Source: Escherichia coli (GTDB taxonomy: Bacteria; Pseudomonadota; Gammaproteobacteria; Enterobacterales; Enterobacteriaceae). From it: a DNA stretch of 64,000 nt. Under the pieces are notes generated by a model. The model was not told the origin of the DNA. It was given only the letters and a program-made list of their open reading frames with translations, and did no database searches. A program made the translations under genes and the position numbers. This document shows positions 62,254 to 63,251 of this stretch, one piece after another. The stretch lies in NCBI RefSeq assembly GCF_024502345.1, contig NZ_JALDNN010000001.1. One strand, given 5' to 3'. Each line of letters starts with the position of its first letter. The stretch's first letter is position 1.

Positions 62254-62784
62254 CCTGCAATTCGTTGATGATAAAGGGTTAGACCCCGTGAGGCCTATCT
62301 GGCTATTGTACAGGATATACGTATCCGCTTAACGAACAAGAACCTCACGCGCGTCTTTCATCAGGGTCCGAATCGATGACGATTCATCATGGCCGTTTAT
62401 AGTACCGCAGTCTCTCCCCTTTATTTTTACTGAAGAGCAGACAGAAACCATAAACACCGGCGTTGACACGCCGGGGAAGCCCTTATAGTACAATAATTTT
62501 CGAAATCCAACCCATCCCGCCTACAGGAATGACGGATTTTTCGGCGGTTCCGGCGTAGACCCACCACAACTGCTGTATAGCTTGTGGGTAAGTGATAATG
62601 AAGTGCAAACGAGATGGCGCAAATACTCTTTTGGTTTATCTTTTAATTACTTACGTATTAAAAGATAAACCAAAAAATAAAAGACATTACTGTTATCCCC
62701 TTTAAAAAGTGGATAACCGAACAGCATCGGCGCGAGCGCCTCAAAAGTAGCTCCCCACGCTAAAGCGCGGGGCATTCAGAACGG

Positions 62785-62829
62785 AATCCCTCGATGGCTA
62801 ACAGCTCGCCTGTTAGCCATCGAGGGATT
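62785..62829. repeat. 20-bp perfect inverted repeat with 5-nt loop (aatccctcgatggctaacag / ctgttagccatcgagggatt) inside an ORF-poor segment
   Basis: Exact reverse-complement arms at 62785..62804 and 62810..62829; not followed by a U-tract on either strand. Confidence 0.7.
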
Positions 62830-63198
62830 GGACAAATCCGGCCACGCCGGATACGTCAGCAAATATCGCTGAAGAATTAGCTTACACGCTCGTAAGCGGC
62901 TCTTACGACCCGCTAACGCGGAGATACGCCCCAACTGCGGCTTCGCCTTGTTGTGACCACTCCGACCGCGCACAAAAGCCTCTGAGCCGCTTTTAGCGGA
63001 ATATGGCTTTGCAAGGTGAAGGGATGGATAGGCGATCCCTTTCGATCCCTCACTGGTATCGGCGGCTAACCCTCGGTGCTACCTGTCATTTCATCCTGCC
63101 GCCTTACATGCGCTAACGCGCATAAATCCCCGTTCCTCAGTGGAACGAAAACTCACGCTAACAGGGTAGTGACCGGGTAGCCACGATAACTGCCAACA

Positions 63199-63251
63199 AA
63201 ATTAGCTTATAGGTTAATTCTACCTTGTCTGAAATTAGCCTATAGGTTAAT
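63199..63251 (+). repeat. two 20-bp direct repeats (aaattagcYtataggttaat) 33 bp apart, overlapping the toxin promoter: candidate operator sites
   Basis: 63199..63218 and 63232..63251 differ at one position. Confidence 0.6.

Follow-up and report, generated by a model that had tools for sequence, protein, structure and literature searches.

What fills the gene-poor kilobase between a fragment of an IS110-family insertion sequence (IS) and a toxin-antitoxin operon in a stretch of Escherichia coli DNA of 64,000 nucleotides (contig NZ_JALDNN010000001.1)? The whole stretch is called the window here, and the segment in question covers its positions 62254-63200. A first-pass annotation, made from the letters alone, had seen no convincing open reading frame (ORF) in the segment, had drawn attention to a perfect 20-bp hairpin and to recurrent GCTAAC motifs, and had offered a structured guide RNA, a remnant, or a regulator-binding array as explanations. 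The answer is a plain one. Every piece of the segment can be assigned to a known kind, so the segment is ordinary: known kinds of non-coding DNA lie abutted, and there is no new structured RNA. Probably, four cis-acting pieces of mobile elements have come to stand end to end, namely, the tail of an IS, an orphan replication origin region, a relic of a Tn3-type element, and a toxin-antitoxin operator. What is new is modest and comprises (i) the ends, the target, and a predicted guide RNA for the IS1618/IS5708 group, (ii) the anatomy of an uncharacterized IncFII-type origin, and (iii) a palindrome in the slot of the Ter site.

The mosaic make-up emerges from BLAST searches against plasmids, in which parts of the query occur separately from one another. 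Query positions 1-257 co-occur with IS110-family genes, and later parts adjoin genes labeled “RepA family” or toxin-antitoxin genes. Does the segment itself encode anything? Identical DNA is found in dozens of RefSeq and PLSDB records, where its annotation is “none,” and the only ORF, 62776..62973 on the minus strand, is not credible, having homologues with 1-nt and 4-nt indels inside the frame; on both counts, the absence of a convincing ORF is borne out. An Rfam search, which the first-pass annotation had proposed, was run at a permissive threshold and returned only a subthreshold best match, HgcC on the minus strand, with 32.2 bits against a gathering cut-off of 50 (E = 7e-5), all others having E >0.05. 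Since HgcC is an archaeal family and the score is below threshold, this match is put down to chance, and the other Rfam matches are microRNA noise on palindromes.

The first piece is the 3' remnant of an IS1618-like element of the IS1111 family (61752..62488, plus strand), 737 bp of about 1365 bp. A plasmid of E. coli AW1.7 (L001) carries a full copy of 1365 bp, to whose 3' part the remnant is 99.4% identical, and related copies are annotated as IS1618 (Y. pestis pMT1) and IS5708. A C-terminal fragment of the transposase runs up to 62228 (Pfam Transposase_20, E=7.7e-28) and is followed by the 3' non-coding region (62229-62488). Subterminal repeats and a long non-coding region 3' of the gene make the remnant IS1111 type. 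Where exactly does it end? Six independent IS copies share AATGG-AAGGGACTTCCCC on the left and GGGGAAGCCCTT-ATAG on the right, with GGGGAAGCCCTT pairing with AAGGGACTTCCCC; in the window, the right subterminal inverted repeat and the last four IS bases, ATAG, take up 62473..62488 on the plus strand, GGGGAAGCCCTT itself being 62473-62484. Their flanks, too, agree over about 20 bp on the left and about 31 bp on the right, and they diverge beyond this shared target. The joined flanks of IS1618 in pMT1, GGGGTCAGTTTGGATATCGAAAATTATTGTA followed directly by CGTTAAG, are found uninterrupted and with 0 mismatches at the end of a Tn3-family tnpA (L025, 4001-4039), and an empty site without the IS is seen in pCAV1151-215 and pKTa005_6. 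Because the joined flanks equal an intact Tn3-family inverted repeat (IR), and by comparison with the empty site, the right end of the IS is set at 62488. The first-pass annotation had also proposed finding the parent element and comparing its ends, and this is the outcome. An alternative right end at 62510, where BLAST hits stop, contains target sequence and is ruled out by the empty site and the intact repeat.

Judging from these flanks, the IS1618/IS5708 group inserts at a fixed point of the Tn3-family 38-bp terminal repeat. The right-hand part of the target in the window is a relic of such a repeat (62489..62521, minus strand, 25/31 identical), and in relatives lacking the IS this IR-like relic lies about 70 bp past the repA stop codon and marks the landing site of the IS in the window lineage. 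Several details of the neighborhood may be recorded here. Compared with the intact AW1.7 copy, a G run at ~62180 has suffered a 1-nt deletion, which throws the transposase remnant out of frame over what would be the last ~15 codons of the intact reading frame. The left half of the element was cut away by an IS903-like element (60694-61751) with terminal repeats GGCTTTGTTGAATAAATC, in which the transposase frame is itself broken up, the two resulting ORFs (60726-60959 and 60856-61695) overlapping each other. Finally, AAGGGACTTCCCC, the left subterminal repeat of the IS1618 group, is also present in R1/R100-type oriR, 8 bp from the DnaA box (L009 ~29866, and pEc45_1, L006 ~922, on the reverse strand), a 13-mer match that is unlikely by chance (post hoc p about 0.003).

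What might the non-coding end of this IS do? A consensus fold and guide-target matches point to a candidate gene for a guide RNA of the seekRNA/bridge type at 62270..62425 on the plus strand. In the predicted fold, a 7-bp stem (CGUGAGG/CCUCACG, 62287-62293 with 62343-62349) encloses, in order, guide T, a distal 5-bp hairpin (62313-62326), and guide B. Guide T, UAUUGUAC (62304-62311), can base-pair with GTACAATA, the stretch of the target top strand that spans the insertion point. Guide B, GCUUAACGAA (62327-62336), reproduces, in the same sense, the left target flank GCTTAACG together with the first two bases of the IS, and its 8-nt part GCUUAACG (62327-62334) matches GCTTAACG and so pairs with the target bottom strand. 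Both matches include the crossover G of CTTAACG followed by TACAAT, where they overlap, and the match to the top strand lies 5' of the other. Published IS1111 seekRNAs are arranged alike, with the top-strand match on the 5' side and an overlap at the insertion point (PMC11187229). A second stem-loop follows (62365-62394), and behind it UUUAUAGUAC (62396-62405) matches the right IS end and its flank; among candidate donor-side guides of the second stem-loop, this right-end match is the only one, with no convincing match to the left end.

How well is the guide module supported? Across the six IS copies, which are close relatives, the consensus fold has 42 pairs, 3 of them with compensated changes, and the guide layout is kept; one of the changes turns a G-C pair of the closing stem into A-U in IS5708. 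IS5075, a copy of which is in L002, has the same stem/guide/hairpin/guide layout, and its guides, AAAACGGAA and UAUUUUC, match its own target, a Tn21-type IR. UUCAUCAGG stands directly after the guide module in the IS1618 group and IS5075 alike. That the guides of IS5075 appear to have changed along with the target, a natural reprogramming, is the strongest evidence for the module. Two observations count against it: the fold is no stabler than those of shuffled sequences (z = -0.94), and, in the single IS5708 copy examined, guide T (AUCCUAC) does not fit the flank. The Rfam search gave no family for 62229-62488. On balance, the module in 62229-62488 is predicted to be of the published seekRNA/bridge kind. 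In intact copies, the 3' region would be cotranscribed with the transposase gene and give rise to such an RNA, one internal loop of which would display the two 8-nt guides, UAUUGUAC to the top strand of the target and GCUUAACG to the bottom strand. In the window, the left half of the element is lost, so that the guide RNA gene is a stranded remnant and the copy cannot move. In IS of this kind, no promoter has been seen other than the one that arises on circularization (PMC11187229), and it is out of reach for the truncated copy, which cannot form a circle.

Could the whole ORF-poor kilobase, hairpin included, be the non-coding end of an IS110-family element that encodes a bridge RNA? IS1111-type elements do encode their seekRNA downstream of the transposase gene (PMC11187229), and for 62229-62488 the bridge RNA suggested by the first-pass annotation holds up. 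It does not extend to the hairpin and the GCTAAC copies, which lie 300-670 bp past the IS end. The IS ends at 62488 in every copy, and the hairpin region stands beside repA without the IS in many plasmids and is missing from other IS copies, so that these boundaries refute a kilobase-long guide RNA region and leave it next to no probability.

What, then, is the DNA beyond the IS? From 62489 rightward, the window is colinear with the DNA 3' of an IncFII_repA-family gene in relatives that lack the IS, namely, Phytobacter pCAV1151-215 (L002), K. pneumoniae kp5152 p3, and four small plasmids, C. sakazakii pESA2, E. coli pKTa005_6, K. michiganensis pKOX58_3, and S. enterica pLG25p1. Their repA encodes a protein of about 230 aa (Pfam IncFII_repA, 26.7 bits against a cut-off of 22.9). 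The same DNA follows such a gene in seven plasmids with fixed spacing, the origin core starting about 160 bp after repA in L002, L005, and L011-L014. In pKTa005_6, the native order is repA, the IR-like IS target, origin, hairpins, conserved block, and RelE/helix-turn-helix (HTH) operon. By this colinearity, 62489-63125 is the DNA normally found 3' of repA in IncFII-type plasmids like pESA2 and pKTa005_6. The “remnant” that the first-pass annotation kept as a fallback comes closest to the truth for the part with the hairpin and motifs, where what is left of a plasmid replicon is its origin region.

The putative origin core (62568..62720), conserved across 7 plasmids, consists of a conserved leader, an AT-rich palindrome, and 9-mers resembling DnaA boxes. 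The palindrome is perfect, with 19-bp arms (62629-62647 and 62657-62675) that covary in pLG25p1; it was found by a repeat scan and had been missed in the first pass, as had several shorter conserved hairpins. The DnaA-box-like 9-mers are TTATCCCCT (62693-62701, plus strand) and, inverted relative to it and with 1 mismatch, TTATCCACT (62708-62716, minus strand). In a living replicon, the initiator and DnaA would open the duplex at the AT-rich palindrome and DnaA boxes. Some points speak against a straightforward IncFII assignment. Alignment of 62489-62880 with R100 oriR, which spans 188 bp in R1/R100, gave nothing significant, and the order of parts in the core, AT-rich first and then DnaA boxes, is unlike that of R1. 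Because the core cannot be aligned with oriR, the likeness between them is one of position and parts rather than of sequence. The IS would have landed in the repeat-like relic about 70 bp past repA, with the origin region following. The 64-kb window has no gene for a RepA of either type, making the origin a relic, at least locally; it is probably inert and carried along with the toxin-antitoxin genes. Other insertions have hit the origin and hairpin zone independently, namely, a Tn3-family transposon (L020, 2990-3001), IS26 (L021, ~3000), and another Tn3-family element (L003, ~5000), and each of these events left the part proximal to the toxin-antitoxin genes in place.

Downstream of the core lies a zone rich in hairpins. 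GGCGC-GA-GCGCC (62729-62740) is near-invariant in the 7 aligned plasmids. CCCCACGC-TAAA-GCGCGGGG (62753-62772) pairs fully on the minus strand only, by way of a G-T pair, and is terminator-like on that strand. Throughout the alignment of 7 plasmids, which takes in kp5152 p3 with its Ter site, neither of these GC-rich hairpins (62729..62772) has changed by more than single-base substitutions. Further along is a 7-bp hairpin, ATCCGGC-CAC-GCCGGAT (62836..62852), with a compensated G-C to A-T change in pLG25p1. As single-stranded DNA, 62735-63000 folds far better than shuffled sequences (z = -5.2 and -7.5 for the two strands), and the hairpins would form only once the DNA is single stranded.

Might this folding betray a small RNA instead, transcribed on the minus strand from about 62860 to 62740 and ending at the GC hairpin 62772-62753 with its short T run? 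The minus strand folds better (-72.5 versus -62.1 kcal/mol), the hairpin at 62753-62772 pairs fully only there and was flagged as terminator-like, and HgcC (E = 7e-5), the only Rfam match, is on that strand. Yet that match belongs to an archaeal family and scores 32 where 50 is required, no promoter-like site was found on the minus strand, the T run is 4 long and interrupted, and an equal strand asymmetry is expected of a single-stranded DNA signal. A small RNA is therefore very unlikely, and a DNA-level signal remains the preferred reading of the zone.

Next to the hairpins stands a conserved non-coding block (62883..63125, plus strand). Its core, 62883-62985, is 85% identical over 103 bp to R100 (L009, 30267-30369), and homology can be traced to ~30520 (window ~63125). 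In R100, the counterpart begins 40 bp downstream of a Ter core (at 30217), and the DnaA box of oriR is about 420 bp away on the same side. The block is present in at least 5000 plasmid records, mostly at 80 to 90% identity, and is almost never annotated. A consensus single-strand structure from 12 replicons contains 3 compensated pairs, and near the end of the block a small hairpin (63108-63123, plus strand), whose stem is compensated in R100, carries the second copy of CGCTAACGCG in and around its loop, the first lying within the block core.

What could so widespread a block be for? In R100-type plasmids, the RepFII origin lies between repA1 and repA4, and ter sites are within repA4 (PMC4398462). 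From its position and conservation, the block is assigned, putatively, to the repA4/leading-strand priming region, and it would serve the replicon as a primase-dependent priming signal, or G site. Studies by Masai and Arai in 1989, Bernander et al. in 1992, Jiang et al. in 1993, and Tanaka et al. in 1994 reportedly found that the leading strand of R1/NR1 is initiated at a G site of this primase-dependent kind, some 400 bp on the downstream side of oriR and near the 3' end of repA4, and that plasmid G sites share conserved blocks. The block has CGGAGATAC...CTCCG in common with stem-loop II of the complementary-strand origin of phage G4. Some caution is called for. In direct alignment, the likeness to phage G4 comes down to one 9-mer, a closing stem, and short words; the CTG at 62936-62938, a candidate start triplet for the primer, is kept in 10 of the 12 replicons but is CTT in R100 and pEc45_1; and the basis of the assignment is, as said, position and conservation. 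Neither conserved CTG triplets nor the polarity of Ter singled out a primer start or a template strand. One further observation concerns the reach of the block. On the IncX1 plasmid pTET_A3_4 (L004, ~4985-5000), homology starts exactly at a 16-bp palindrome, AATCCCTCGAGGGATT, and runs through the block to the toxin-antitoxin genes, so that the priming-type block is not confined to IncFII replicons.

This leaves the feature that first caught the eye, the 20-bp perfect hairpin AATCCCTCGATGGCTAACAG/CTCGC/CTGTTAGCCATCGAGGGATT at 62785..62829. A repeat scan found its arms (62785-62804 and 62810-62829, separated by a 5-nt loop) to be 100% complementary, just as the first pass had it and far beyond chance. 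What is it? It lies outside the IS and is thus not a bridge RNA; it is a quasi-palindrome at the DNA level, not an RNA gene. In an alignment of 7 plasmid variants, pairing holds in 90.7% of cells, both partners have changed in 3 of the pairs, and pN1863 has a different yet again perfect 20-bp stem. The outer stem weighs against a role for the full length: it is broken in 3 of 6 diverged lineages (pKTa005_6, pKOX58_3, and pLG25p1), with only the left arm diverged, so the 20-bp stem cannot be essential. The inner 9-bp stem is kept throughout the plasmid group save for single left-arm substitutions in pESA2 and pLG25p1, and the loop varies among CTCGC, CTTGC, and CTTGT. In pCAV1151-215 (L002, 5317-5338, against window 62797-62817), a plasmid otherwise identical, the loop is inverted to GCGAG, which suggests arm-to-arm strand switching or cruciform processing in vivo. 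The IncX1 plasmid has only the 16-bp AATCCCTCGAGGGATT and differs from the window by 29 bp flanked by TCGA. Paired arm changes, loop inversion, and short and long versions together indicate a quasi-palindrome whose arms copy each other.

Does the hairpin have a function at all? Compensated changes in a palindrome can arise without selection, by arm-to-arm copying, a process known as quasi-palindrome mutagenesis. The palindrome might accordingly be functionless, perfected by intrastrand template switching and merely hitchhiking in a conserved origin-proximal region. This would sit well with an outer stem that is broken in three lineages while the right arm and downstream DNA are conserved, with a loop inverted in one otherwise identical plasmid, and with the 16-bp IncX1 version, set apart by a 29-bp difference between TCGA repeats. 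It sits less well with an inner 9-bp stem that is retained, a loop that varies only slightly, and a position fixed between origin and priming block, and complete lack of function is held to be possible though doubtful. The preferred reading divides the hairpin in two: the perfection of the long stem is most likely kept by arm-to-arm template switching and not by selection for 20 pairs, while the inner stem is probably part of a putative single-strand landing pad beside the priming signal.

A bolder proposal is suggested by the position of the hairpin, which occupies the Ter slot of R100, kp5152 p3, L022, and L023 (besides R100 and kp5152 p3, Ter is carried there by pF77_3, by an IncFII(K)-type plasmid from K. 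pneumoniae, and by one from Serratia). It may be that in the branch resembling pESA2 and pKTa005_6 the 45-bp palindrome replaces Tus-Ter of classical IncFII plasmids, either as a protein-independent or differently recognized barrier that stops the fork, one round completed, just before the leading-strand start or as a primosome-loading hairpin. In its favor, the hairpin fills the slot between origin-side GC hairpins and block where others carry GTTGTAAC, and Ter and palindrome were never found together at any locus examined. However, only about a dozen loci were compared, the palindrome has no similarity to Ter, half of the lineages do without the outer stem, the palindrome has no known protein partner, and a hairpin barrier would require cruciform extrusion. 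A fork barrier or terminus is accordingly unlikely, and the replacement of Tus-Ter in this branch is put forward only as a speculation of equally low probability; if true, it would be a second solution for ending unidirectional theta replication at its own start point.

Other identities for the hairpin were considered and rejected. It is not a Ter site, as no GTTGTAAC core is found in 62000-64000. It is not an intrinsic terminator, having no T run past 62829 on the plus strand or 62785 on the minus strand and being unlisted in the terminator scan. Nor is it a hot spot for recombination or insertion: the breakpoints at the Tn3-family end in L020 and at IS26 in L021 are at different bases, and so the insertions look unrelated; only the edge of the IncX1 homology coincides with an arm.

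What of the GCTAAC copies? On the plus strand, they are at 62797, 62912, 63065, 63112, and 63157, with one on the minus strand at 62812 in the other hairpin arm, and CGCTAACGCG occurs at 62911 and 63111; relocating these positions gave the five copies and the exact 200-bp interval noted in the first pass. Is such a cluster exceptional? The test counted any hexamer with 5 same-strand copies within <=366 nt and compared the window with second-order Markov simulations of the same length. The window has 2 clustered hexamers per strand; the simulations average 0.42, and at least one turns up in 37% of them. The sole other hexamer to cluster at that density in the window is CTGGCA, found 5 times on one strand within 317 nt (~39627-39950). 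The contexts of the GCTAAC copies have little in common: a hairpin arm, the conserved block (also in R100), a poorly conserved spacer, the loop of the small hairpin, and the inner end of a Tn3-type IR, where ACG(T/C)TAAG is normal. The copies are not jointly conserved in the relatives. The cluster is within chance, and its copies share neither origin nor context.

An operator array in which hairpin and GCTAAC copies bind a dimeric regulator, for example, an HTH antitoxin or a copy-number regulator, would draw on these five recurrences and on the resemblance of the half-site GTTAGCC to the ATTAGCC half of the toxin-antitoxin operator repeats. Against it, the cluster does not exceed chance over all hexamers, the copies lack a common flank, spacing, and co-conservation, and in four complete replicons the DNA upstream of repA and of the HTH gene holds no related palindrome or half-site. 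A binding array of this kind, one of the suggestions of the first-pass annotation, is therefore largely refuted and is very improbable.

The R100 backbone homology stops at the third piece, a degenerate Tn3-type terminal inverted repeat (63125..63162, plus strand). It is 27/38 identical to the Tn3 IR, the best such match in the whole window, and contains the fifth GCTAAC. Its outer 11 bp, including GGGG, are lost, leaving only a relic, and no intact Tn3-family terminal repeat is found in the window. The fourth piece consists of two 20-bp direct repeats found by the repeat scan, AAATTAGC(T/C)TATAGGTTAAT, each partly palindromic (63199..63251, plus strand). These accompany the toxin-antitoxin operon in all contexts and are presumed to be its operator/promoter. 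The operon itself, annotated in RefSeq, encodes a RelE/ParE-Gp49 toxin (63274-63603, plus strand; Pfam Gp49, E=6.8e-23) and an HTH antitoxin (63584-63865, plus strand; Pfam HTH_3, E=1.7e-13). After the antitoxin stop comes a clean terminator hairpin (~63869-63895), and past it AAATGTCAC occurs twice at a spacing of about 25 bp. The pair, within 63866-64000, could be a resolvase (res) site, given that in pKTa005_6 the operon is followed by a recombinase gene.

Why should so ordinary a segment matter? Its value is mostly one of annotation. The block, with its presence in at least 5000 enterobacterial plasmids, and a common small IncFII-type origin region are both unannotated and are therefore flagged repeatedly as mysterious, ORF-poor, structured DNA. 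Once block and origin are recognized, live replicons can be told apart from relics, orphan origins that are carried along with toxin-antitoxin genes. The IS1618/IS5708 group, widespread on resistance plasmids, gains a defined end, a target, and a predicted guide RNA, which makes its insertion sites predictable, and it adds an example of natural guide reprogramming beside IS4321/IS5075. The exchange of a palindrome for Ter is the only point able to teach anything new about plasmid replication.

How do these pieces compare with known systems? The closest parallel to the IS is the pair IS4321/IS5075 of the IS1111 family (Siddiquee et al. 2024, PMC11187229). Both groups have a DEDD transposase of ~340 aa with Transposase_20, repeats placed a few bases in from the ends, a long non-coding region 3' of the gene with a guide/hairpin/guide loop followed by UUCAUCAGG, and orientation-specific insertion into the 38-bp terminal repeat of Tn3-family elements. 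According to Partridge & Hall 2003, as cited in PMC11187229, IS4321/IS5075 insert into Tn21-type repeats. The IS1618 group differs in its target, GGGGTCAGTTTGGATATCGAAAATTATTGTACGTTAAG, which is not of the Tn21 type, and in its guides, which differ accordingly. Unlike IS4321/IS5075, the copy in the window is truncated and immobile, and for the IS1618 group the guide RNA is a prediction.

The model for the origin region is the IncFII basic replicon of R1/R100 (NR1), which runs repA1, CIS, oriR, repA4 with Ter, G site, and toxin-antitoxin genes (pemIK/parD). The origin region agrees with it in the order of the genes, in how far the origin lies from repA, and in having a DnaA box, the downstream block, and a toxin-antitoxin operon next in line. 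In contrast, RepA of the relatives is short (about 230 aa) and a distant member of its family, the origin core cannot be aligned and has its parts reordered, a 45-bp palindrome stands in place of Ter, the toxin-antitoxin genes are a RelE/Gp49-HTH pair and not PemIK, and in the window repA is gone.

The priming-type block may be set beside the complementary-strand origin of phage G4, which uses primase only. The two have in common several hairpins on one strand, CGGAGATAC closed by CTCCG, and a CCC-N-ACTGC motif in the block that resembles the G4 primer start, but they show no overall sequence similarity. The 20-bp hairpin, for its part, behaves like the quasi-palindromes of E. coli that undergo template-switch correction, with the same joint changes of the arms, inversion of the loop, and short and long versions with a 4-bp repeat. 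Unlike them, it holds a fixed and conserved position in the replicon, and a function is therefore possible.

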